Origin: Gemmatimonadales bacterium
GTDB taxonomy: Bacteria > Gemmatimonadota > Gemmatimonadetes > Gemmatimonadales > GWC2-71-9
Assembly (NCBI GenBank): GCA_044867445.1
Contig: JBIOUY010000027.1
Span: 18,124 to 82,123 of the forward strand
Direction: 5' to 3'
DNA length: 64,000 nt
Within the stretch, counting starts at the first letter, position 1. Each line of letters begins with the position of its first letter. Position numbers and translations under genes: made by a program. The notes under the pieces are model-generated. The model ran no database searches, was not told the DNA's origin, and was given only the letters and a program-made list of their open reading frames with translations. This document shows positions 9,915-62,304 of this stretch, piece by piece.

Positions 9915-10047
9915 CTAACAGCTAACAGCTAACAGCTAACAGCTAACAGCTAACAGCTAACAGCGGCGCCCTGGCTGCAGCGTCCGCTGCCTGGTCTGGC
10001 GATCTCGTCCAACGCGGACTGTTAGCTGTCAGCCGTTAGCCGTTAGC
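9915..10047. repeat. paired inverted tandem-array module A (CTAACAG x7, spacer, CTGTTAG/CCGTTAG-type arm)
   Basis: Seven perfect CTAACAG units at 9915-9963. The complementary arm ctgttagctgtcagccgttagccgttagc lies at 10019-10047. The module starts 12 nt after the P60 stop and ends 9 nt before the HAD start. Confidence 0.9.
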
Positions 10048-12483: not shown

Positions 12484-12744
12484 GCACTGCAACTGCGCAC
12501 TGCAACTGCGCACTGCAACTGCAACTGCGCACCACGGAGACACGGAAGACACGGAGATTGCACGGAACTGTAAGCGGGCTGCTTCTATTCTTTTGATAAG
12601 CTGAGGGTGCCTCTCCCCACCCCATCTTCTCATGTGAATGAGCCGGCGTGGCATTCCGTGCTGTCTTCGTGCTCTCCGTGTCTCCGTGGTGCGCAGTTAC
12701 AGTGCGCAGTTACGGTGCGCAGTTGCTTTGCCGAAGTGCGCAGC
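12484..12744. repeat. paired inverted tandem-array module B (compound: GCACTGCAACTGC-type plus ACACGGAG-type units)
   Basis: The left arm at 12484-12565 is (gcactgcaactgc)x3 followed by cacggagacacggaagacacggag. The right arm at 12656-12744 is ccgtgctgtcttcgtgctctccgtgtctccgtgg followed by (tgcgcagtta[c/a]ag)n, its reverse complement. A loop of about 90 nt with lower GC separates the arms. The module sits between the convergent acpS and kinase genes. Confidence 0.9.
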
Positions 12745-17644: not shown

Positions 17645-18496
17645 TTAATTCTTTGACGACAAACCTTTCTTGCCAACTTCCAGATACCTCCCCGGCGCGG
17701 GGCTGCTTCCCGACCGCCATGCGCTCAGCAGGCCCGCGCCCAAGACCACCAGCAGGACGCTGGTGAGCTGCGCGAGCGTGAACGGGCCCAGAAAGCGATC
17801 GTCCTTGGCGCGCAGGATCTCGACCAGAAATCGCTCTGTCCCGGCGAGCACCAGGTAGAGGCCGAAGAGCCAGCCGATCGGGCGTTGCCGGGTACGAAGT
17901 CTCCAGAGAATGGCAAAGACCACCAGCATGGAGGCGGTCTCGTACAGTTGCGTAGGATGCACCGGCAGGACGATCGATGGGTCGGTCCCGGCCGGCACTC
18001 GGATGCCAAAGAGATTTTCCATGTTTCCCGCGGTCGAGGGAGGGAGTCCGCGGGGAAAGCGCACCGCCCAGGGCAAGCTGGTGGGTCTGCCGTAGTCGTC
18101 GTTCACCATGAAGCAGCCGACCCGGCCGAGCGCATAAGCTGCCGCCAGGGCGGGAGCATTGAGGTGCATGGTCCAGCGCAGCGGGACCCGCAAGCGCCAA
18201 CCATTCAGGATGACAGCGGCCGCCCCGCCGAGAAAGCCGCCGTAGTAGACCAGCCCGCCTCGTGACAGGAGAGTTCGGGGATCCCCGGTAAGCGCGACGT
18301 ACCACAGCTTGGCCCCGATGATGCCTCCGATGACCGCACCGGCAACGATGTCCGCCGCGTAGTCCTCGGCGAGTCCACGGCGGCGAAGCTCCAGCGCGAT
18401 CAGCCAGCCACCCATGAGAAAGGCGACCATCAGCATGATCCCGTAGCCGGTGATCTCGAGCTGGCCCAGATGGATGACGAACGGGTAGACGGTCAT
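17645..18496 (-). CDS. lgt: prolipoprotein diacylglyceryl transferase
   Basis: 283 aa polytopic membrane protein. The GYGIMLMVAF... N-terminus and the YGRPT region are typical of Lgt. Confidence 0.85.
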   Translation of the reverse strand: MTVYPFVIHLGQLEITGYGIMLMVAFLMGGWLIALELRRRGLAEDYAADIVAGAVIGGIIGAKLWYVALTGDPRTLLSRGGLVYYGGFLGGAAAVILNGWRLRVPLRWTMHLNAPALAAAYALGRVGCFMVNDDYGRPTSLPWAVRFPRGLPPSTAGNMENLFGIRVPAGTDPSIVLPVHPTQLYETASMLVVFAILWRLRTRQRPIGWLFGLYLVLAGTERFLVEILRAKDDRFLGPFTLAQLTSVLLVVLGAGLLSAWRSGSSPAPGRYLEVGKKGLSSKN

Positions 18497-24384: not shown

Positions 24385-24611
24385 AGTAGGAAGTGAGAAG
24401 TGAGAAGTAGAGGAGTAAGGAGTGAGGAGCGATGTCCTCCTGGAGAGAGCCCGGAAGGGCGACCGGAAGGGGCCGAAGCTCGATTTGGTTTCGGCTCCCT
24501 TCGTTCGCTGCGCTCAGTCCAGGGTGACTGCAGGCTCCCCCGACGTTCCCGCCTTCTCACTTCTTACTTCTCACTTCTTACTTCTTACTTCTCACTTCTC
24601 ACTTCTCACTC
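24385..24611. repeat. paired inverted heptamer-array module C (GAAGTGA/GGAGTAA type), inside the thiS-thiG junction
   Basis: The left arm at 24385-24429 is purine-rich heptamers. The right arm at 24553-24611 is CTTCTCA/CTTCTTA units. The 123-nt core contains a degenerate GATCCCTCGCTGCGCTC-like motif at 24495-24528. The thiS stop TGA (24610-24612) abuts the array. Confidence 0.9.
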
Positions 24612-27260: not shown

Positions 27261-29051
<1,791 letters not shown>

Positions 29052-31250: not shown

Positions 31251-31500
31251 CAGCAAGAAGTAAGAAGTAAGAAGTAAGAATGTGAGAGGTGAGGAGTAAG
31301 GAGTAAGGAGCAAGGAGTGAGGAGTGAGGAGCAGGGTTAGTCCTCCTCATCCCGAGCGTAGGCCAGGGATCTGCTCAGCTGTCATCGCGACCCGCCGAGC
31401 AGACCCCTCCGTCAGGTACGCTCCCTCGGGATGACGAACCCGTTCAGTGGGTCACTCCTCACTCCTCACTCCTCACTCCTTAATTCTCACTGCTCACTGC
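31251..31500. repeat. paired inverted heptamer-array module D (GAAGTAA/GGAGTGA type), between the zinc-ribbon ORF and ruvB
   Basis: The left arm at 31251-31334 has about 12 units. The right arm at 31453-31500 is CACTCCT units followed by CACTGCT units. The core is itself a nested inverted repeat: cctcatcccgagcg at 31345 pairs with cgctccctcgggatgacg ending at 31436. Confidence 0.9.
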
Positions 31501-35740: not shown

Positions 35741-35964
35741 GCAGGGGAGCAGGAAGTGAGAGGTGAGAGGTGACGGAGGGGCAGCGAGGGATCTGGGCCG
35801 GCTGCATCAAAGTCGGCGAGTAGATCCCTCGGTCGCTTGTGCTCCGTCGCTGCGCTCGGGGCACGCTCCTCGGGATTGCGCTCGGGGCATGCTCCTCGGG
35901 ATGAGGATTCACTCCGCACTCCTCACTCCTCACTTCTCACTTCTTACTTCTTACTTCTTACTGC
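35741..35964. repeat. paired inverted heptamer-array module E (GTGAGAG / CTCACTT, CTTACTT type) in a divergent promoter region
   Basis: Left arm at 35741-35779 and right arm at 35910-35964. The core holds gcagcgagggatct (35781) inverted against agatccctcggtcgc (35822). It also holds three tandem GCGCTCGGG/GCTCCTCGGGAT-like copies. Confidence 0.9.
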
Positions 35965-35992
35965 CCTCTTCTCACCCCGTTAAGTTTCAGTC

Positions 35993-39438: not shown

Positions 39439-40419
39439 GTGACTGAGACGTACTCTGATGCCCGGATCCTCCTGATCGGGGCGTTCGACGACGCCATGTA
39501 TGCCCATACGGCGCTGCGCCGTCGCGCGCTTCAGCGTCTGGGCTGCGCGGTCGGGACACTGAATCTGACCAGCCCGCGCCGCTGGTGGAGCCGGTTCCGG
39601 CGGGTCAGTCTGCGGGAGCGGTTGGAACAGGCGATCGCGCAATCGGTGCCCGGGATCGTACTCGTCCTGGAAGGCAGACAGCTCGAGGCAGCGCTCGTCG
39701 CCGAACTCAAGCGCCGCACTCGCGCTCTGTGGCTCAACTGGTTCTGCGATGGCCGCCGCTCGCTCGAGACGGTCAGGTCCATTGCCCCGGCCTATGATCG
39801 GGTCTTCGTCGCTGGCAGCGAGGTGGTCGCCGCTCTGAAGCAGCCGGGCCAGCCGCCGGCCCGGTATCTCGCCCCCGCCTGCGATCCCTCCGTGCATCGG
39901 CCCATGCGATCTCGAGATCAGTTTCGGGCGAACCTGGTGTTCGCGGGCACCGCGACGCCCCATCGCGAGCGACTCCTGTCCGAGTTGGTGGAGTTCGGGT
40001 TGGCGGTATGGGGGCCTGGATGGCGAAAGACGAAACTACGGGACTACTGCCGGGGAGAGTTGCTGGATCACCTCGACTATATCCGGGCCTATGCCGGTGC
40101 ATCGGTCGCGCTCAATCTGCAGTGGGGTGAGAGCTCGGGCCCGGCTCTCGATCCCGGGTGCAACCGCCGGCTTTTCGAGCTTGCCGCCATCGGCGTGCCC
40201 CAGGTCGCGGAGGACCGTCCCGACCTGCATCTCCATTTCCAGGAGGGCTCCGAAGTGCTCGTCTCCCGGGGCATCGCCGACTTCAAGGCGCTCATCACGG
40301 AGGCGTTGCACGACCGGGGATGGGCCGAGCAAGTGGCGGCCGGCGCGCGGCAGCGAGCGCTGACCGAGCACACCTATATGCACCGGATGGCCGAGCTGTT
40401 GAAGGCAGTGAGAAGTTAG
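39439..40419 (+). CDS. CgeB-family (DUF3880-type) glycosyltransferase-like protein
   Basis: The pattern FAGTATPHRERLL...WGPGW...NRRLFELAAIG...HTY..R resembles the CgeB/YkvP-type family. GTG start. The last codons and the stop lie in module F. Confidence 0.55.
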   Translation: MTETYSDARILLIGAFDDAMYAHTALRRRALQRLGCAVGTLNLTSPRRWWSRFRRVSLRERLEQAIAQSVPGIVLVLEGRQLEAALVAELKRRTRALWLNWFCDGRRSLETVRSIAPAYDRVFVAGSEVVAALKQPGQPPARYLAPACDPSVHRPMRSRDQFRANLVFAGTATPHRERLLSELVEFGLAVWGPGWRKTKLRDYCRGELLDHLDYIRAYAGASVALNLQWGESSGPALDPGCNRRLFELAAIGVPQVAEDRPDLHLHFQEGSEVLVSRGIADFKALITEALHDRGWAEQVAAGARQRALTEHTYMHRMAELLKAVRS

Positions 40420-40614
40420 AAGTGAGAAGTGAGAAGTGAGAACAAGTGAGAAGTGAGAAGTGGATCGAGTTCGCCGTTTCCAGTCCGCCGCGACTTCCCG
40501 GTACGTTCGGGACAGATCCCTCGCTGCGCTCGGGATGAGGAGCCCCGCTCCTCACTGCTCACCTCTCACCTCTCACCTCTCACCTCTCACCTCTCACTGC
40601 TCACTGCTCACTGC
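40405..40614. repeat. paired inverted heptamer-array module F (GTGAGAA / CTCACCT, CTCACTG type) between convergent glycosyltransferase genes
   Basis: Left arm at 40405-40462 with about 8 units. Right arm at 40547-40614 with about 10 units. The core carries GATCCCTCGCTGCGCTCGGGATGAGG at 40515-40540. Both flanking genes terminate inside the arms (stops at 40417 and 40601). Confidence 0.92.
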
Positions 40615-41527
40615 TGTTCGGCATCTCCCCCGTCTTCAAATACTCGCTAAACACCCGCAGGTAGCCTTCCGCCATCGCCAGGTGGGAAAAGTGCCGCTCG
40701 GCACGGGCCCGGCACGCGGCGGGATCGATCCGATCGATGCCGCGCGCCAGTTCGACCAACTCCTCCACGCTATCCCCCAGGGCGCCTACTTCCGCTGTGA
40801 CGATCTCGGGCAAGCTACCCCGACGGGTGCCCAGTATCGGTGTGCCGCACATCAAGGCCTCGAGCAGAACATTGGCGCAGGGCTCGTCCCAGAGGGCCGG
40901 CATCCAGAGGCAGCGCGCGCCGGCCAACAGCGTCATGCGTTGTTCCCCGTACACTGTGCCAACGTACCGGACCCAGCGACTGAAGCTAGGCCGCCAGCCG
41001 CCCGCCACCACCAGACGCCGCCGGCTACGCTTCGCTCCCTCCGCGGCCCAGTGATAGCCTTTGGCATGGTGCAGCCGTCCCAGGAAGAGGTCGAAGTCGG
41101 TCTTGATCGGCTGGAAGGGATATTCCCTCGGGTCCACGCCGTTGTACACGAACGTGTGGCCACCATGACGCCGAGCATGATCGGCACTGACGAACAGGGT
41201 GTTCGGGGGGCAGACCTGGCCAGGCCTCCGGTTGCCGGCCAGGCGCCAGATCCAGGGCACCCGGGGCGGAACATGCAATGGCGAGAAGGCGCAGAGAATA
41301 TCGATATCAGCAGGCAACCATGGTTGGATATCGAAACTCGGCCCGCGTGCGGCCCGGACGTCCACCGGCACCAGCGTGGTCTCGCGGACCTCTGATCCCG
41401 ATCCGGCCAGCAGGGTAACGCGGGTTCCCAACTCCGCCAATCCGCGAGCCACAGTGACGATTGCCCGCTGAGTGCCGCCATAACCCTGCACCGGGAGCCG
41501 GTCGGGAAAGAAGAGGGCCACGTGCAT
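40601..41527 (-). CDS. glycosyltransferase family 4 (GT-B, GT1 clan)
   Basis: C-terminal EPCANVLLEALMCGTPILGTRRGSLPE (E-x7-E type motif). N-terminal YGGTQR... region. Confidence 0.75.
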   Translation of the reverse strand: MHVALFFPDRLPVQGYGGTQRAIVTVARGLAELGTRVTLLAGSGSEVRETTLVPVDVRAARGPSFDIQPWLPADIDILCAFSPLHVPPRVPWIWRLAGNRRPGQVCPPNTLFVSADHARRHGGHTFVYNGVDPREYPFQPIKTDFDLFLGRLHHAKGYHWAAEGAKRSRRRLVVAGGWRPSFSRWVRYVGTVYGEQRMTLLAGARCLWMPALWDEPCANVLLEALMCGTPILGTRRGSLPEIVTAEVGALGDSVEELVELARGIDRIDPAACRARAERHFSHLAMAEGYLRVFSEYLKTGEMPNSSEQ

Positions 41528-49460: not shown

Positions 49461-50306
49461 ATGGCTCGAGGACCATTGGGCGAGCTGGTCCGACGCGATC
49501 GGTTCTTCCAGCTGGGACTCAGCTTGGTCGCACTGGTCGTGGGGGCGGCTCTGTTCGCTCCCTGGCTGGCTCCCCACAATCCCCTTTCCGGCGACCTCCG
49601 GAATGCCTACCTGTTGGAGCCGAGCGCCCGGTTCCTGCTTGGAACCGACCCCCAGGGGCGTGATGTCCTCAGCCGGGTGCTCTACGGGGCCCGACTGTCC
49701 CTTTCTGTGGGACTCATCGCGCAATCCGTGGCAGTCACAGTCGGCGTCCTTCTGGGGCTGTTGGCCGGGTACTACGGGCGGTGGATCGATGCCCTAGTGA
49801 TGCGTCTTGCCGACATCACTCTCGCGTTCCCCACTCTCCTCCTGCTGATCGCCGTCGCGGCAGCAGTGCGGCCATCTTTACCAGTCGTCTTCGTGGTGAT
49901 TGGGGTAGTCGGTTGGGCCGGTATGGCGCGACTGGTCCGAGCCCAGGTGCTGGTCTTGAAGCGAGCCGAATTCGTGCTCGCCGCGCAGGCGCTGGGCGCG
50001 CTCGACCGGCGTGTCCTGCTGCAACACCTACTCCCGAACGTGCGGACCCAGGTGATCATCGCCGCGACGCTGGGCATCGCCGGCGCGATCATGGCCGAGG
50101 CCGCGTTGTCGTTTGTAGGACTGGGTGCCCAGCCGCCAACGCCAAGCTGGGGTGCCATGGTGGCGGATGGGCGGGATCTCCTCCGGGTGGCGCCATGGGT
50201 TTCGTTCGCCCCGGGTCTCGCGATCGGGATCGCGGTGTTGGGATTCAATCTGGTGGGCGATGGCTTGCGCGAGGCATACGATCCCAAGCTCCGCAGTGAG
50301 CGTTGA
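49461..50306 (+). CDS. ABC transporter permease (DppC/OppC-like); no partner genes nearby
   Basis: Six-TM pattern and an EAA-like loop (AAQALGALDRRVLLQHLLPN). Start set at the ATG at 49461. Confidence 0.8.
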   Translation: MARGPLGELVRRDRFFQLGLSLVALVVGAALFAPWLAPHNPLSGDLRNAYLLEPSARFLLGTDPQGRDVLSRVLYGARLSLSVGLIAQSVAVTVGVLLGLLAGYYGRWIDALVMRLADITLAFPTLLLLIAVAAAVRPSLPVVFVVIGVVGWAGMARLVRAQVLVLKRAEFVLAAQALGALDRRVLLQHLLPNVRTQVIIAATLGIAGAIMAEAALSFVGLGAQPPTPSWGAMVADGRDLLRVAPWVSFAPGLAIGIAVLGFNLVGDGLREAYDPKLRSER

Positions 50307-51441
50307 TCTCGCCGCGCTCCGCCGGGAGGAGTTCCCCTGGTGCGAGCACACGGTCTACCTCAACAACGCCAGCACTGGCCCACTGCCTGAGCGCACCCGC
50401 CTGGGGTTGGAAGAATTCAACCGCCGCCGGACGCAGCCATTCCGTCTGCCCGATCGCGATGTGTTCGCGATGCTGGATCACTCGAGAGCTCTCATTGGAG
50501 AGCTGATCGGCGCGGACCAGGAGGAGATCGCCCTCTCGGTCAATACCGGTTTCGGGCTGAGCCTGGCGGCCCGGGCCCTGCCGCTCAAGGCAGGGGAGAT
50601 CGTGCTGGGAAGTGATCGTGAGTTCCCCGCGAACGTGTACCCGTGGATGCGCCTCCGCGAGAGCGGCATCACCTTCGAGCGGACCCCCACGACTGAAGCC
50701 GGCTGGCCCGACGAAGACCGTCTGCTGGAGCGGCTGGGGGACCCTCGGGTTCGAGTGGTGGCGATCTCCTGGGTCCAGTTCAGCAATGGGTACATGGTGG
50801 ATCTGGCCCGGTTGTCAGAGGCTACCCGGAGCGCGGGCGTGTTCCTGGTGGTAGACGCGATTCAGGGTGTGGGACAAGTTCCCCTGGACTTGCGGCGGAC
50901 CCCGGTTGATGTGCTGGCCTGCGGGGGCCAGAAATGGCTGCTCTCACCCTGGGGCTCTGGATTCACCTATGTGCGTCGGGAGATGATTGCTCGGCTCAGC
51001 CCAGCCGTTACCGGGTGGATGGCCTTCGAGGGGACAGACGACTTCAGCCGATTGACCCGCTACGACGACAGGCTGAGGGGGGATGCACGACGCTTCGAGC
51101 TGGTTACGCTCCCCTATCAGGAGTTCGCCGGAATGAACGTCTCGCTCGAGCTGCTGCTTTCGATCGGGGTGGAACGCACCCGAGAACACCTACGGGCCTT
51201 GCATCGGCCGATTCTCGAATGGGCGCAGCGTGCCGGGGCCCGGGTGGCGTCACCCACGGACGGCCACGGCTCGGGTATCCTCTGCATTGCGCCACCCGCG
51301 GTGGACGATGTCTTCCGACGGCTCAAGGCGGCTCGGATCATCTGCAGCCTGCGGGAGGGGATGATCCGGCTGAGTCCGCACTTCTACAACAGCGTGAGGG
51401 ATATGGAGCGGGTGGTGGAGGAGCTGGAAGGTGAGAGGTGA
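50296..51441 (+). CDS. class V aminotransferase-fold PLP enzyme (cysteine desulfurase/selenocysteine lyase-like)
   Basis: YLNNASTGPLP N-terminus and VDAIQ...GGQKWL (PLP-Lys region). The GTG at 50296 overlaps the upstream gene end. The last codons GER and the stop lie in the module G arm. Confidence 0.75.
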   Translation: MSVDLAALRREEFPWCEHTVYLNNASTGPLPERTRLGLEEFNRRRTQPFRLPDRDVFAMLDHSRALIGELIGADQEEIALSVNTGFGLSLAARALPLKAGEIVLGSDREFPANVYPWMRLRESGITFERTPTTEAGWPDEDRLLERLGDPRVRVVAISWVQFSNGYMVDLARLSEATRSAGVFLVVDAIQGVGQVPLDLRRTPVDVLACGGQKWLLSPWGSGFTYVRREMIARLSPAVTGWMAFEGTDDFSRLTRYDDRLRGDARRFELVTLPYQEFAGMNVSLELLLSIGVERTREHLRALHRPILEWAQRAGARVASPTDGHGSGILCIAPPAVDDVFRRLKAARIICSLREGMIRLSPHFYNSVRDMERVVEELEGER

Positions 51442-51939
51442 AAGGTGACAGGTGACAGGTGAGAGGTGACAGGTCAGTCTTTGGGCCCGTACCGCTTTCT
51501 CAGCCCCATGAGCAGGGCCTGCGCTCTGGAGCATTGCTTTCGAGCTGGCTGGACGACCGATTTCCGGCACGATGCTCTCCGACATGCAAAGATCCAGCAG
51601 CTCTGCTGTCTCGACCGCGGAACCATAGGCAATGGTCAGATGATGTCGAAACGACCGACTCGATTGACGGGCGTACCCTTCAGCGATATTCAGTTGTACT
51701 GATAATGACGCCCGCTGCAGTTGACTGAAGACACTCGCGAGTCGAGGCTGATAGTAGTCCCGGGTGATCGCCATGACATGACCAACCAGGGCGCGTGCGA
51801 CCTGCCAGGCGACGAGGGACCGATGGTCTCGCATACTGGATGATGGCGCGGGCCGCGCGGCTTGTTGTATCGCGATCCCGCAGCCTCAATCCTGGCAGCG
51901 CTCCGGCCTTCACCTGTCACCTGTCACCTGTCACCTTCC
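51431..51939. repeat. paired inverted heptamer-array module G (GTGAnAG / CTGTCAC type) enclosing a four-helix-bundle gene
   Basis: The left arm at 51431-51472 is six GTGA[G/A/C]AG units. The right arm at 51908-51939 is (CACCTGT)n. The 435-nt core carries the four-helix-bundle ORF on the minus strand. The right arm ends 2 nt before the ATG of the next gene. Confidence 0.9.
51474..51834 (-). pseudogene. four-helix-bundle protein (23S rRNA intervening-sequence protein family), apparently frameshifted
   Basis: The N-terminal about 95 aa fit the family (SLVAWQVA...LQRASLSVQLNIAEGYARQS...AYGSAVETAELL). The family-like C-terminus (...RAQALLMGLRKRYGPKD*) and a stop at 51474-51476, at the arm edge, are in another frame, because 361 nt is not divisible by 3. 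The in-frame 194-aa ORF instead runs antisense through the array and the neighbouring gene. Confidence 0.55.
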
Positions 51940-51940
51940 G

Positions 51941-53530
51941 ATGCCCACATTCACCGCAATGCTCGCCGCCGGTTACGGCTTCACCGACCCCAGCGTCACC
52001 CTCGGCGCGGCGCTGGAAGGCCAGGGGATTCACCAGGAGCCCAAGATCAAGATCCCGCTGGCCATGCTGAACCGTCACGGCCTCATCTCCGGAGCCACCG
52101 GAACCGGCAAGACCAAGACGCTCCAACTCCTCACTGAACAGCTCTCGGCCCAGGGGGTCCCGGTGTTTGCCGCCGACATAAAGGGCGACCTGAGCGGGCT
52201 CGCGATGCCGGGCGAGGCCGGCGATCGCGTGACCGGGCGGGCCAAGGAAGTGGGCTGGGATTGGAAACCGGCCGGTGTGCCAGTCGAGTTCGTGAGCCTC
52301 AGCGGTGGCCCTGGTGTCCAGCTCCGCGCCACCGTGAGCTCTTTCGGTCCGCTCCTGCTCGGCAAGGTCCTCTCCCTCAATGAGACCCAGACCAGCGTCT
52401 TGACGATGGTCTTCAAGTACGCGGACGACAATCAGCTTCCGCTCCTCGACCTGCCCGACCTGCGGGCAGTATTGCAGTTCCTGAGCTCGGACGGGGGCAA
52501 GGAAGCGCTTGCTTCCTACGGCGGCATGTCACCCGCGTCGGTGGGAGTATTGTTGCGGAAGATGGTGGAGCTCGAGTCGCAGGGCGCGGACCGGTTCTTC
52601 GGAGAGCCCGAGTTTGATGTGAAGGACATGATCCATCTGACCCAGGATGGCCGCGGGGTGGTGACCTGCCTCGAGCTCTCCGACGTTCAGGACAAGCCGC
52701 TGCTGTGGTCCACGTTCATGATGTGGCTGCTGGCCGAGTTGTATCACAACCTTCCCGAAGCCGGCGACCTTCCCAAGCCAAAGCTGGCGTTCTTCTTCGA
52801 CGAGGCGCACCTGCTCTTCGACGACTCCCCCAAGGCGTTCTTGGACCAGATTCAGCAGGTCGTCCGGCTGATCCGTTCCAAGGGGGTGGGAGTGTACCTG
52901 GTGACCCAAACTCCCAAGGACGTCCCGACCGACGTCTTGGCCCAGCTGAGCAATCGGATCCAGCACGCCTTGCGGGCGCACACCCCGGACGACGACAAGG
53001 CGCTCAAAGCCACGGTGCGAACCTTTCCCAAGACCAGCTTCTACGACCTGGAAGAAACGCTGACGACTCTGGGCATCGGCGAAGCGGTGGTGACGGTTCT
53101 CGATGGGCGGGGCGTACCCACTCCGGTCGTCGCCACCCGGCTCATTCCTCCGAGCTCCCGCATGGCGCCGCTCACTCCTGAGGAGCTTCAGGCCGATATC
53201 CGGCAGTCGGATTACCTGCAGGAGTATGGCAAAGCAGTGGATCGGGAGAGTGCCCGGGAGATGCTGGCGTCGCGCATGGCGAAGACCGCCACTCCCACTC
53301 CAGTGCCGGCTGAGGCCGGGCCGGTCTCGGTGCCGGCCGGTGGGGCGTCTCCTGAGCCGGCGCGGGGCTCAAGAGTGGGCAAGACCATAGCCCAGGTGGC
53401 AGGAGGGGCGTTGGTGGGTGCGCTTACCTCATCCATCGGTCGGACCGTCGGACGGGAAGTCGTGCGTGGACTGTTCGGGTTACTCGGCGCCAAGCCGCCG
53501 CGAACCACTATTCGGCGATCGCGCTGGTAG
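51941..53530 (+). CDS. HerA-like/DUF853 (YjgR-family) P-loop NTPase
   Basis: Walker A GATGTGKT and Walker B LAFFFDEAH. 529 aa with a low-complexity C-terminal tail. Confidence 0.75.
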   Translation: MPTFTAMLAAGYGFTDPSVTLGAALEGQGIHQEPKIKIPLAMLNRHGLISGATGTGKTKTLQLLTEQLSAQGVPVFAADIKGDLSGLAMPGEAGDRVTGRAKEVGWDWKPAGVPVEFVSLSGGPGVQLRATVSSFGPLLLGKVLSLNETQTSVLTMVFKYADDNQLPLLDLPDLRAVLQFLSSDGGKEALASYGGMSPASVGVLLRKMVELESQGADRFFGEPEFDVKDMIHLTQDGRGVVTCLELSDVQDKPLLWSTFMMWLLAELYHNLPEAGDLPKPKLAFFFDEAHLLFDDSPKAFLDQIQQVVRLIRSKGVGVYLVTQTPKDVPTDVLAQLSNRIQHALRAHTPDDDKALKATVRTFPKTSFYDLEETLTTLGIGEAVVTVLDGRGVPTPVVATRLIPPSSRMAPLTPEELQADIRQSDYLQEYGKAVDRESAREMLASRMAKTATPTPVPAEAGPVSVPAGGASPEPARGSRVGKTIAQVAGGALVGALTSSIGRTVGREVVRGLFGLLGAKPPRTTIRRSRW

Positions 53531-59042: not shown

Positions 59043-59597
59043 GTGCGGTGCCTGGCGTTGAATGCCTCCTTCGAGCCACTGACAATGGTGCCGGTGCGGC
59101 GCGCCTTGCGACTCGTCATCGAGGGCAAGGCGGAGATCGTGGAATCCGACGGTCCCGACCTGGTTCGAAGTGAACGCCTGACGCTGCCCAAACCTGCAAT
59201 TATCCGGCTCATCAAGTTCGTGCACGTTCCCCGCCGCTTCCGTCGCCAGGTCACCAACACATTCCTCTTTGCTCGTGATGGTTACCGATGCCAGTTCTGC
59301 CACCGGGGACAGAACGAGCTGCGTCATCGGGAATGCCTGACCCGGGACCATCTGGTCCCGCTCTCTCGCGGGGGCGACAACGAATGGACCAACGTGGTGA
59401 CCGCCTGCAGTTCCTGCAACACTCGCAAGGGTAATCACCTGCCCGAAGAGTGCGGCATGCACCCGCTGATCGTGCCGAGGGAGCCGCACTTCGTACACCT
59501 GTCGTGGGCTGTGCGCCGGCTCTCGGCGGCGCAGGCGAAATACATCAAGTTGTTCTACGGTGAGGAAGCCCTGCGGGCGTTGGGGGGGACGGTCTGA
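59043..59597 (+). CDS. HNH endonuclease-family protein
   Basis: CQFC...LTRDHLVPLSRGG...NVVTACSSCNTRKG, the zinc-finger HNH pattern. GTG start. Confidence 0.8.
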   Translation: MRCLALNASFEPLTMVPVRRALRLVIEGKAEIVESDGPDLVRSERLTLPKPAIIRLIKFVHVPRRFRRQVTNTFLFARDGYRCQFCHRGQNELRHRECLTRDHLVPLSRGGDNEWTNVVTACSSCNTRKGNHLPEECGMHPLIVPREPHFVHLSWAVRRLSAAQAKYIKLFYGEEALRALGGTV

Positions 59598-59601
59598 GGG
59601 C

Positions 59602-59790
59602 GTGAAGCGTGAAAGGTGAAACGTGACAGGTGAAGCGTGAGAGGTGAAAGGTGAAAAGGCGCCAAAATTCGGCTCCTTTTTACTTTTTACGGTTCACGTT
59701 TCACGTCTTTTACGTTCTTTTACGTTTCCCGGTTCACGTTTCACCTGTCACCCGTCACCTGTCACCTGTCACCTTCACCCCTCACTTCAC
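59602..59790. repeat. paired inverted heptamer-array module H (GTGAnnn x8 / about 16 complementary units, AT-rich inner part)
   Basis: The left arm at 59602-59657 is eight exact-period GTGA[A/C/G][A/G][C/G/A] units. aaaaggcgcc pairs with ggctcctttt around the 7-nt loop AAAATTC (59664-59670). The right arm runs to 59790 with CTTTTTA, GTTCACG, TTTCACG and CTGTCAC units. The module starts 5 nt after the HNH stop, and the convergent gene stop (59782) lies inside the right arm. Confidence 0.92.
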
Positions 59791-60476: not shown

Positions 60477-62258
60477 CTAGAACCGGCGCTGCAGCCTGAC
60501 CACGAACTTGACCGGCTCGGCGTCGGTGAGGGCCTTCACCAGATACGCGCCGATCTGGCCTGCATCGATCCCGACCCCGACATCCCACTTCCACTCGTGC
60601 AGGGAGGGAATGCGGTTGACCGGCACTTGACTCGGCCCATCCCCCGCGAGCCAGGCCTTTCCAGCGTCACCCAGCAGCACCAGATCGGCCTCTTCGATGC
60701 CGATGAAGCGCCCGTTGGGTCCACCGTCTCGGTCCCGGAAGCGGTGGCCGAGGTTGAGGCCCAGCCTGGTCCGCACCTCGATTTGGGCGGCGATCATGCG
60801 GTCGCAGAGCGCCAGCTGGGACGGATCGTTGAAGCCTCTCGGTGCGCAGGTGAAGGCCCGGAAGTCATAGCCCGGCATCAGGTCCAGCCCGCCCAGTGAG
60901 ACTCGGCGCTGCACCGGCAGCCGGTCGCCGCCGACCCATCCATCCGCCCGGAGCCGAGCGTTGACCCGGAGCGAGGGCGTGAGCCGTGAATACCGCCGCA
61001 GGTCCAGGGAGAGACGATCGAAGTGGTAGCCACCGAAAAGCGGGGGCGCGGGACGAATGACCTCGGGTAAGGTCACCGGCGCGACGTTATCGCTGGTGGA
61101 GTGCTCGAACCGGGCTCGGAGGAACCAGCCGGTGCTGGGAAGGTCCCGCTCGTTTCGAGTATCGAAGTCCAGCGCCAGGCCGGTGGTAAAGTAGGCGCCG
61201 TCGTCGATCAGCGGATTTCGCCGCCACCGGTCGCTGTTGCGCAGGAGCGACCATGGGTCAGTGGCGCGGACCGAATGTTCGCCGTCGCGACGGAGACTGA
61301 GCTCGAATCGGAGCGGACGCAGCGGCTGAACCCAGGCCGCCGCGCCGCCACCCTGGCGTTCGAAGTAGTCGTGGTAGTCGCGTTGGAGCAGGAACGCGGA
61401 CCAGCCATTCTCGCTGGGTGAGAGTGGCTGGTCCTCGATGGAGCTGGTCTCGCTGTACACTCGCCCCGTGATGCCGGCGACAGCGGTCTTGACCTCGAGG
61501 CGGAGGTTGTACCCGAAATCGCTGCTCAACCGCGAGCCTTCGCTCGCACTCCGCAGGATCCCCCGTAGGTCGAGCCTTGCCACCGAGCCGCGAGTCGGGC
61601 GCAGCTCGAACATCGGCCCGAACACAATGGGCAGCCCTTCTATCCGGTTGTAGGTGCCTCCGGTCCCCAGCGTGAGTGTGGTTCTGACTTTTCCGGTCTG
61701 AAAGCTGGTCCGCGCGGTGGCCAGCTCGGACAGGGGGCGCCGGCGCTCGCGCAGAACCAGTATGCCGTCGGCGTTGCGCAGCACCGGTGCGGCATCCCAG
61801 TACACCCGCTCGCGGCCCTCGTGCTGAGCGTTGGGGGAGCGGATCAGGCGTCCACCAACCACCAGGATGTCCCCGTCCACCACCGCGCCCGGCAGCAGAT
61901 ACAGGGTGCCATTGGCGACCGCGATCGGACCTGAGACCCGGCCCGAGATGCGGAGCGCGCCGCGATACTGCCCCAGACGGCCCTCGAACCGGCTGTCAGG
62001 TGGTAGGCTTACATCTCCCTGCATGCGAGTGGTGGCGGAATCGTTGTAGAAGGCGATCAGGTCGCTGACGACGCTGGACGGAGGCCCGCCGCGCATCACC
62101 GTGTCAATCGGAGGGGCGTCGGGATCGATGACGATGACGCTGTCCTGAGCCCGCAGGCGCGTGACGACGCCGAAGAAGAGAAGAGCATGAAAGGTGAAAC
62201 GTGAAACGTGAAAGGTGAAACGTGAAAGGTGAAGGGCGGAGCGAGGTGATATGGGCAT
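60477..62258 (-). CDS. Omp85-family outer-membrane beta-barrel protein with an N-terminal bactofilin-like/polymer-forming repeat region
   Basis: C-terminal barrel ending ...VRLQRRF (terminal Phe). The N-terminal region has GxxxVxGDIxVVGG-type repeats. The only in-frame starts (ATG 62258, GTG 62273) lie upstream of repeat array I, so the array is translated (SRFTFHVSRFTFHALLFFGVV). Confidence 0.7.
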   Translation of the reverse strand: MPISPRSALHLSRFTFHVSRFTFHALLFFGVVTRLRAQDSVIVIDPDAPPIDTVMRGGPPSSVVSDLIAFYNDSATTRMQGDVSLPPDSRFEGRLGQYRGALRISGRVSGPIAVANGTLYLLPGAVVDGDILVVGGRLIRSPNAQHEGRERVYWDAAPVLRNADGILVLRERRRPLSELATARTSFQTGKVRTTLTLGTGGTYNRIEGLPIVFGPMFELRPTRGSVARLDLRGILRSASEGSRLSSDFGYNLRLEVKTAVAGITGRVYSETSSIEDQPLSPSENGWSAFLLQRDYHDYFERQGGGAAAWVQPLRPLRFELSLRRDGEHSVRATDPWSLLRNSDRWRRNPLIDDGAYFTTGLALDFDTRNERDLPSTGWFLRARFEHSTSDNVAPVTLPEVIRPAPPLFGGYHFDRLSLDLRRYSRLTPSLRVNARLRADGWVGGDRLPVQRRVSLGGLDLMPGYDFRAFTCAPRGFNDPSQLALCDRMIAAQIEVRTRLGLNLGHRFRDRDGGPNGRFIGIEEADLVLLGDAGKAWLAGDGPSQVPVNRIPSLHEWKWDVGVGIDAGQIGAYLVKALTDAEPVKFVVRLQRRF

Positions 62259-62287
62259 ACGATGGTCCTTCACTGTTCACGTTTTAT
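62187..62287. repeat. paired inverted heptamer-array module I (GTGAAAC/GTGAAAG x7 with a short complementary arm)
   Basis: The left arm at 62187-62235 has strict 7-nt period. The right arm at 62267-62287 is ccttcac tgttcac gttttat. The left arm overlaps the 5' coding end of the Omp85-like gene. Confidence 0.85.
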
Positions 62288-62304
62288 GCCTTTGGTGCTG
62301 CGCT

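Follow-up and report, generated by a model that had tools for sequence, protein, structure and literature searches.

Structure of module G and its host genes

We analyzed a window of 64,000 nt from the genome of a Gemmatimonadales bacterium (GenBank assembly GCA_044867445.1, contig JBIOUY010000027.1, forward-strand positions 18,124 to 82,123), in which a small gene for a four-helix-bundle protein lies between two inverted arrays of tandem heptamers. This element, hereafter called module G, separates two protein-coding genes of the plus strand, namely a class-V aminotransferase gene on its left (50125..51441; PF00266, 5.6e-33) and a HerA-like ATPase gene on its right (51941..53530; PF05872, 1.2e-185); all coordinates without a locus name are those of the window. 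The left arm, which is the 3' arm in the sense of the enclosed gene, occupies 51429..51474 and consists on the plus strand of 6.6 units of GGTGAGA, GGTGAAA or GGTGACA (consensus GGTGAVA; period 7 and 89% matches in Tandem Repeats Finder, TRF), and the right arm, the 5' arm in the gene sense, occupies 51910..51936 with 3.9 plus-strand units of TCACCTG (100% matches in TRF). The arms are inverted, the TCACCTG repeat being the reverse complement of the GGTGACA repeat, and in the minimum-free-energy fold of each strand one arm is paired with the other.

The core between the arms is about 435 nt long and is composed of a leader of 75 nt from the ATG to the upstream arm (51835..51909) and a gene of 119 codons (51474..51834, 361 nt as it stands), both on the minus strand; the cassette is antisense to both host genes. 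The last codons of the aminotransferase gene and its TGA stop (51439-51441) lie inside the left arm, the stop codon of the enclosed gene (plus-strand TCA, 51474-51476) touches the same arm, and the ATG of the HerA-like gene is found 4 nt past the end of the right arm. The leader is a homologous part of such cassettes with a fixed length. A promoter and terminator scan found no sigma-70 consensus in it, and the consensus structure of 30 leaders contained zero predicted pairs; their alignment shows recurrent GCG...GCG, ATTGgT and TAnnnT motifs. No Rfam family reached its gathering score anywhere in the window, and module G is located outside any rRNA gene.

Heptamer arrays of this type are not restricted to module G. 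The double-heptamer pattern GGTGAVAGGTGAVA has 13 occurrences in the window, where 0.01 would be expected, and the exact string GGTGACAGGTGACA is found again in the window module at 59739-59773. The window holds eight or nine such modules, of which only module G encloses a gene. A previous reading of this DNA from its letters alone (the sequence-only reading) had described the arms of module G as the same as those of the empty modules; they belong to the same heptamer family (NGTGANA) and are likewise inverted, but they are not identical.

The four-helix-bundle gene

The uncorrected minus-strand open reading frame (ORF), which runs from 51834 to 51250 and encodes 194 aa, matched PF05635 at 2.5e-19 and 69.9 bits (cut-off 33.8) over profile positions 2-84 of 106, and TIGR02436 at 3.6e-18 and 65.8 bits (cut-off 24). 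The assignment of the minus-strand gene in the core to the four-helix-bundle family in the sequence-only reading was thus confirmed, and the peptides it quoted are present. That reading had also regarded the gene as broken, and this proved correct. The N-terminal frame covers 51834-51562 and the C-terminal frame covers 51563-51474, ending with ALLMGLRKRYGPKD and a stop codon (51476-51474) at the arm edge. In the alignment with the ortholog at locus L001 of a related genome, CCGGAAATCGG of the window stands opposite CCAGAATCGG of the ortholog (L001 10270-10280), which means one extra A at the plus-strand TTT of 51561-51563, the gene strand having AAA in place of the AA of intact orthologs. An intact ORF of about 115-125 aa is accordingly not found in the window, the gene being split into two frames by this +1 frameshift.

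We built a lineage hidden Markov model (HMM) from 80 Gemmatimonadales homologs, by which the main frame scored 146 bits and the C-terminal frame 18.4 bits (E 7.9e-5), while nothing else in the 64 kb scored. The resemblance of the C-terminus to the family, which had been claimed on inspection, therefore holds at the level of the lineage model, although this frame by itself has no Pfam match. When one A is deleted, a protein of 119 aa is obtained that is collinear with the ortholog at L001 (P0001) and those at L094 and L095; it matches PF05635 over positions 2-105 of 106 with 79.4 bits, has this as its sole Pfam family, and matches the Protein Data Bank entry 2GSC (Xanthomonas XCC0516) with E 2.9e-8. 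The three orthologs are intact proteins of 119 aa with identities of 83-87%, P0001 being 87% identical to the corrected window protein.

The dN/dS ratio against L001 is 0.088 (0.084 for the part preceding the shift, 0.093 for the part following it), and purifying selection has thus acted on the gene. By this ratio, either the loss of coding capacity is very recent or the extra base came from an error of assembly or sequencing. The 194-aa read-through ORF is present in a public protein collection (P0003), so the frameshifted gene has been annotated there as an over-long protein overlapping the arm and the aminotransferase end. A search of viral contigs found no relatives.

Linkage of arms and gene in Gemmatimonadales

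The surroundings of the gene were surveyed in 80 Gemmatimonadales loci carrying homologs (the best 80 of 212 matches to the subfamily), which amount to 857 kb in total. We compared the 160 nt upstream with the 130 nt downstream of each cassette and recorded a complementary stretch when its score was at least 12, or at least 15 in a stricter version. Complementary flanks were found in 67 of the 80 cassettes (84%) vs 13 of 2000 random 435-nt segments of the same loci (0.65%); at the stricter threshold the counts were 58 of 80 and 1 of 2000. The expectation that four-helix-bundle genes of relatives are flanked by such arrays was thus borne out.

There is one arm per side, and the arms of a cassette are matched to one another, the median score of a cassette's own arms being 20 vs 7 with the arms of other modules; the median stem is 33 bp with about 89% pairing. 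The gap between arm and ATG has a median of 75 nt (interquartile range 70-82, 47 Gemmatimonadales cassettes), which is exactly the value in the window, and the cargo cores, of about 440 nt, range from 418 to 507 nt. The arm units vary from cassette to cassette (GGTGAGA, GGTGAGC, GGGAGAC, GCGAAAA, GGGAACT and GGTAGCT, with some 8-mers or units of about 20 nt), and they are widely different even between proteins that are 50-60% identical. Period 7 predominates among the tandem repeats of these loci (341 arrays in 857 kb), and with arrays so frequent a small gene might merely have come to lie between two of them. Such a chance juxtaposition is refuted by the difference between cassettes and random segments, and it is also contradicted by the single, mutually complementary arm on each side, by the fixed geometry and by the recurrence of the pattern in other phyla, so we give it a practically negligible probability.

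The 5' arm is G-rich in 66 of the 67 cassettes, and by symmetry a purine arm followed by a pyrimidine arm is read on both strands. In the 857 kb, no cargo other than the PF05635 gene was found in modules of this purine-then-pyrimidine topology. Nine larger inverted pairs were considered as modules with other cargo and rejected, being outward-facing arms of neighboring modules around ordinary genes. A stop triplet (TGA, TAA or TAG) is contained in the purine-arm units of 30 of 47 cassettes, which are related by descent, vs 17.5 +/- 2.6 after shuffling, and in the pyrimidine-strand units of only 1 of 47. Because 7 is not a multiple of 3, a stop-bearing heptamer array closes all three frames, and this applies to ribosomes arriving from either side. 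No rRNA motif was found in any of the Gemmatimonadales loci.

Four paralogous cassettes are present within about 17 kb of one Gemmatimonadales genome (L061 2200-9700 and L066, contig CAVPGI010000015.1), and their homology spans arm, leader, gene and arm and ends at the outer edge of the arms. The unit of duplication thus includes the arms. Two of these paralogs lack a start codon (ATA and ACG in its place) and one has a 1-nt deletion near its 3' end; one cassette of this group adjoins a tRNA-like sequence.

The orthologous site in related genomes

Synteny around the HerA gene was found in L001, L033 and L094-L116, and the site between the aminotransferase and HerA genes was compared across 23 syntenic relatives, in which five states were distinguished. 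Eight loci have nothing at the site, the two genes being 19-55 nt apart; L096, L098 and possibly L115 have an empty hairpin module with unrelated 8-9-mer arms, the arms found in this state being CACGAAGGA and CACGGAAG; L108 and L109 have a small palindrome, TCATCCCGAGCG...CGCTCGGGATGA; L102 and L105 have another gene; and the window clade, L033 and L111 have the four-helix-bundle cassette. In L001, L094 and L095, whose HerA proteins are about 91% identical to that of the window, the same cassette is present, intact, at the same site. In L001 its arms comprise about 16 and 13 units, in L094 and L095 about 10 and 6-9, and in the window 3.9 and 6.6; the copy number shifts fast among close relatives, and the arms of one module remain complementary. 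The arms of module G are tandem heptamer arrays in the usual sense, with 7-nt units head to tail in an intergenic position and a copy number that varies among relatives.

On the HerA tree, cassette-free lineages intervene between cassette-bearing ones. The cassette proteins of L033 and L111 have identities of 0.51 and 0.45 to the window protein, which do not exceed those of non-syntenic copies (up to 0.57), so that identity does not mark them as vertical orthologs of it. From the five states and the interspersed cassette lineages on the tree, it follows that the whole element comes and goes at such sites in one piece, through either repeated gain or repeated loss.

The site also bears on the possibility that the hairpin modules arose first as generic intergenic repeats, and that leader and gene are a separate selfish insert targeting their loops or tolerated in them, the tips of rRNA helices being one such target. 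The abundance of gene-less modules (about 40 in 857 kb and 8-9 in the window) would suit this, as would the occurrence of other small elements, the palindrome TCATCCCGAGCG...CGCTCGGGATGA among them, within module loops; moreover, cassettes of one genome differ in their arms (L052, L064 and L071), and helix 45 of 23S rRNA is itself a hairpin tip. On the other hand, the homology of the paralogs takes in the arms, the lengths of leader and core are fixed relative to the arms, and at the aminotransferase|HerA site none of the relatives has GGTGAGA-type arms around an empty core; we also know of no enzyme for such an insertion. We therefore regard a separate insert as possible but rather improbable.

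Other phyla and a 23S rRNA intervening sequence

The search was extended beyond the lineage by tblastn against plasmids, so that the cyanobacterial sample consists of plasmids only. Clear inverted tandem arms abut the gene in nine of 15 cyanobacterial loci, the other six being partial or different. The nine are those of Nostoc edaphicum (L083; arm GGGAGTA, between nrdB and nrdA), Calothrix (GGGTGTA), Anabaena sp. 90 pANA02 (L085; GGTGACA, between cas6 and cas4 of a type I-D system), Geminocystis (GGGAAAA), N. punctiforme (GGGTGTG), Nostoc C052 (GGGAACA), Picosynechococcus sp. PCC 7003 (L176; GGAGATA, between cmr2 and cmr3 of a type III-B system), Nostoc ATCC 53789 and Stanieria. Gemmatirosa kalamazoonensis has a cassette with octamer arms, and a plasmid of Riemerella anatipestifer (Bacteroidota) has arms of the GGTTCAA type. 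GGTGACA flanks the gene both in the window and in Anabaena sp. 90 (L085 1280-1450), the proteins being only about 30% identical. To the 16S rRNA 3' end, GGTGA is complementary. The shared heptamer could reflect convergence or a constraint on arm sequence.

One copy, on plasmid AZO_p2 of Azospirillum lipoferum 4B, is located inside a 23S rRNA gene (Rfam LSU rRNA, 722.6 bits; L174, NC_016586.1 13889-15245), which carries an intervening sequence (IVS) of about 470 nt. The arms of this IVS are 36 nt long and composed of the heptamers GAGGACG, GATGACA and GAGGACA; they are 86% complementary and 397 nt apart, and the ORF between them matches PF05635 with 114.6 bits. This copy is a true IVS, and it is built in the same way as module G. 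The ATG of its ORF lies within the 5' heptamer arm, and the PLSDB gene table has no feature there.

Published data agree with the link between arms and gene. The helix-45 IVS of Coxiella burnetii has tandem GACAGAT heptamers in variable number upstream of its S23p ORF, and RNase III cuts this IVS in vitro at the start of the first heptamer repeat (PMC4990558). In Xanthomonas, the annotated start of XCC0516 is overlapped by a GGGAATC array, and this gene is listed without comment in a table of Xanthomonas repeats (PMC4692102 supplement). The connection that the sequence-only reading had drawn between hairpin modules and IVS-like elements is thus upheld by the excess of complementary flanks over random segments, by the plasmids of other phyla, by the A. 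lipoferum IVS and by the Coxiella heptamers. In our search, the literature linking PF05635, TIGR02436 or S23p to heptamer repeats or to the short tandemly repeated repetitive (STRR) sequences was limited to the incidental description of the Coxiella IVS, the coverage of the literature being incomplete.

Such cassettes explain genes annotated "four helix bundle protein" within operons, namely those between cas6 and cas4, between cmr2 and cmr3, and between nrdB and nrdA. In Pseudanabaena galeata (L086), a four-helix-bundle cassette was likewise observed inside an operon, between cas6 and cas4 of a type I-D system. A clustering study lists "23S rRNA IVP" among the proteins associated with CRISPR adaptation modules (PMC10910872), and the operon-internal cassettes at cas6|cas4 and cmr2|cmr3 may explain this listing. 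The CRISPR association of the family could then be parasitic and not functional, and cassettes of this kind may inflate guilt-by-association calls for PF05635 proteins.

Interpretation and known systems

IVS of 23S rRNA are found at helix 9, 25 or 45, and both their origin and the role of their conserved ORF have been open questions since about 1990. Tandem heptamers are the commonest intergenic repeats of bacteria, and the reason is likewise open. We consider it somewhat favored by the present data that module G and the ORF-bearing 23S rRNA IVS, such as those of Coxiella burnetii (helix 45, with S23p), Leptospira, Xanthomonas and A. lipoferum 4B, are elements of one kind, of which module G is an intergenic copy. 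The protein family is the same (PF05635), and the size is similar, with 428 nt in Coxiella, 397 nt between the arms in Azospirillum and 435 nt in module G. The terminal inverted repeats fold into a stem of some 30 bp in both, the arms are made of tandem heptamers in Azospirillum and in Coxiella (GACAGAT; PMC4990558) as in module G, and the ORF is prone to decay in both. In contrast to the 23S IVS, module G is placed between two protein-coding genes, antisense to them and outside rRNA, so that it has the long-stem terminal inverted repeats that characterize an IVS and lacks the location in a 23S rRNA gene; furthermore, it is only for intervening sequences of rRNA that RNase III has been proven to carry out the excision. 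Intergenic heptamer repeats and rRNA intervening sequences thus look like one kind of element.

We propose the following explanation. Module G occupies what is a gap of 19-55 bp in relatives, between two co-oriented host genes, which are probably co-transcribed because they are so close to each other where the module is absent. A transcript running across the module would fold the two arms into a duplex of about 30 bp and thereby draw the host flanks close to each other, and by analogy this duplex would be a substrate of the type at which RNase III acts in the excision of intervening sequences from rRNA. RNase III may accordingly process mRNA at the arms, as the sequence-only reading had proposed. 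The purine arm would put stop codons in all three frames, so that translation of the host gene would end at the module edge. With both properties, the arms would render an insertion harmless in rRNA helices, within operons and between genes, and the gene would ride as cargo. The complementarity of the arms may be kept by template switching between them at the DNA level as much as by selection on RNA.

Several points weigh against this explanation. The surveyed loci are mutually related and mostly come from metagenome-assembled genomes, so that the counts above are not independent events, and 13 of the 80 cassettes are below the flank threshold, some of them being artefacts of truncated ORFs. 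Among the arm mismatches, G.U and A.C numbered 81 and 67 (p = 0.29), with no strand-specific signature of RNA; with this missing G.U bias on either strand, a purely DNA-level process would fit as well as RNA-level selection on the arms. The gene decays often across cassettes, as by the frameshift in the window, and yet its strong purifying selection implies a protein function, which a model of a harmless passenger does not explain. Finally, no recombinase, transposase or reverse transcriptase gene was found within 8 kb on either side of module G.

Heptamer arrays have been described as cyanobacterial STRR, as GGGAATC arrays of Xanthomonas (70-75 convergent pairs) and as TAACTGA arrays of Beggiatoaceae, which share the period of 7, the intergenic location and the variable copy number and often form inverted pairs (PMC4692102); according to a large survey, no function is known for the heptamer repeats of intergenic DNA (bioRxiv 10.1101/309039). 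Like the arms of module G, the known arrays abut the ends of neighboring ORFs. Their published descriptions tie no gene family to the arrays, whereas in the Gemmatimonadales modules one specific gene is the only cargo.

Another comparison is offered by repetitive extragenic palindromic (REP) doublets forming hairpins (REPINs) and REP-associated tyrosine transposases (RAYTs), in which many gene-less hairpin repeats exist alongside few copies that enclose a gene with the same repeats (PMC3116915). The modules resemble them, and also MITEs (miniature inverted-repeat transposable elements), in having many gene-less hairpins beside few gene-enclosing copies. They differ from both in that the gene of module G encodes neither a transposase nor an HUH enzyme, and in that the arms are tandem arrays of 7-mers and not a unique palindrome. 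The flanked HUH/Y1 transposase that defines a REPIN/RAYT system is absent here, PF05635 being the only Pfam family.

By this comparison, the Avd-like protein might be a trans-acting factor that generates, maintains or mobilizes heptamer hairpins, its gene being flanked by its own substrates. It is the sole cargo found between such arms, it is under purifying selection, the architecture is conserved across phyla, and each cassette lineage retains its own arm sequence. The family includes Avd of diversity-generating retroelements, which has a homologous four-helix-bundle fold and binds nucleic acids and reverse transcriptase (PMC10053308); weak matches to bAvd (PF22296) were seen in cyanobacterial members, and the window protein has no bAvd match. 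Unlike diversity-generating retroelements, module G has no reverse transcriptase or template/variable repeats within 8 kb on either side. The wide divergence of arm sequences between proteins 50-60% identical argues against a factor acting on the hairpins, as do the decay of many copies and the report that the Coxiella protein is not made in vivo (PMC4990558). We consider such a role of the protein unlikely. To our knowledge, the family contains no catalytic motif.

On a wider scale, PF05635 proteins and tandem-heptamer hairpins might constitute one ancient cross-phylum system comparable to RAYTs and REPINs, in which the Avd-like protein creates, maintains or spreads the modules (STRR, Xanthomonas GGGAATC and those of Gemmatimonadales) and the ORF-bearing 23S IVS are copies that landed in rRNA helix tips. 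We give this only a small chance; if true, it would account for the origin of rRNA IVS and also for the excess, between the genes of bacteria, of repeats with period 7. For the reading of module G as an intergenic copy of an IVS-type element, the importance of the present results is that one gene family is the only cargo found between inverted heptamer arrays and that the same geometry is seen in Gemmatimonadota, Cyanobacteriota, Bacteroidota and the 23S rRNA gene of an alphaproteobacterium, by which the questions of IVS origin, ORF role and heptamers become testable in culturable strains.

Gene-less modules and other features of the window

Inverted tandem arms without a gene were found in the window at 9915-10047, 12484-12724, 24385-24610, 31255-31498, 35756-35975, 40407-40615, 59600-59785 and 62188-62300. 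Their units are CTAACAG, AGTGAGA/AGTAAGA, GGTGAGA and CGTGAAA/GGTGAAA, and in all eight the purine-rich arm is 5' on both strands; in the module at 12484-12724, 8-mer arms are nested within 13-mer arms. A solitary tandem array is located at 27263-27293.

The sequence-only reading had suggested that the gene-less modules are MITE-like derivatives that arose by internal deletion from a cargo-bearing element. The arms of cargo-bearing and empty modules of the window belong to one heptamer family, and DNA flanked by hairpins is prone to deletion. However, when the cassette and its leader were compared with the window by BLAST, the empty cores showed no similarity to the 435-nt cassette or to the 75-nt leader, the best matches being chance 10-15-mers outside the modules, whereas MITEs are deletion derivatives of a transposase-encoding element. 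In relatives, unrelated arms (CACGAAGGA and CACGGAAG) were found on the empty modules of the orthologous site, several empty modules carry an unrelated small palindrome, and the cargo is not a transposase, so that the relation of autonomous and non-autonomous elements is missing. We consider an origin by deletion quite improbable, and the interpretation in the sequence-only reading as a whole is partly supported.

The small palindrome, TCATCCCGAGCG.AGCGAGGGA ... TCCCTCGCT.CGCTCGGGATGA, is found in the loops of three empty modules (31332-31451, 35774-35908 and 40463-40550) and, free-standing, between the aminotransferase and HerA genes of L108 (430-589) and L109 (1931-2105). It has the appearance of a REP-like element for which hairpin loops or the aminotransferase|HerA site also serve as a location.

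The genes within 8 kb on either side of module G encode glycosyltransferases, a methyltransferase, a permease, the aminotransferase, HerA, TyrRS, PBP1, an amidohydrolase and an HNH protein. The HNH endonuclease gene (59043-59597) ends directly at the module of 59600-59785, and this arrangement is syntenic in L001 (2050-2737). It is the sole nuclease gene near a module in the window, and the pairing of gene and module is probably coincidental.

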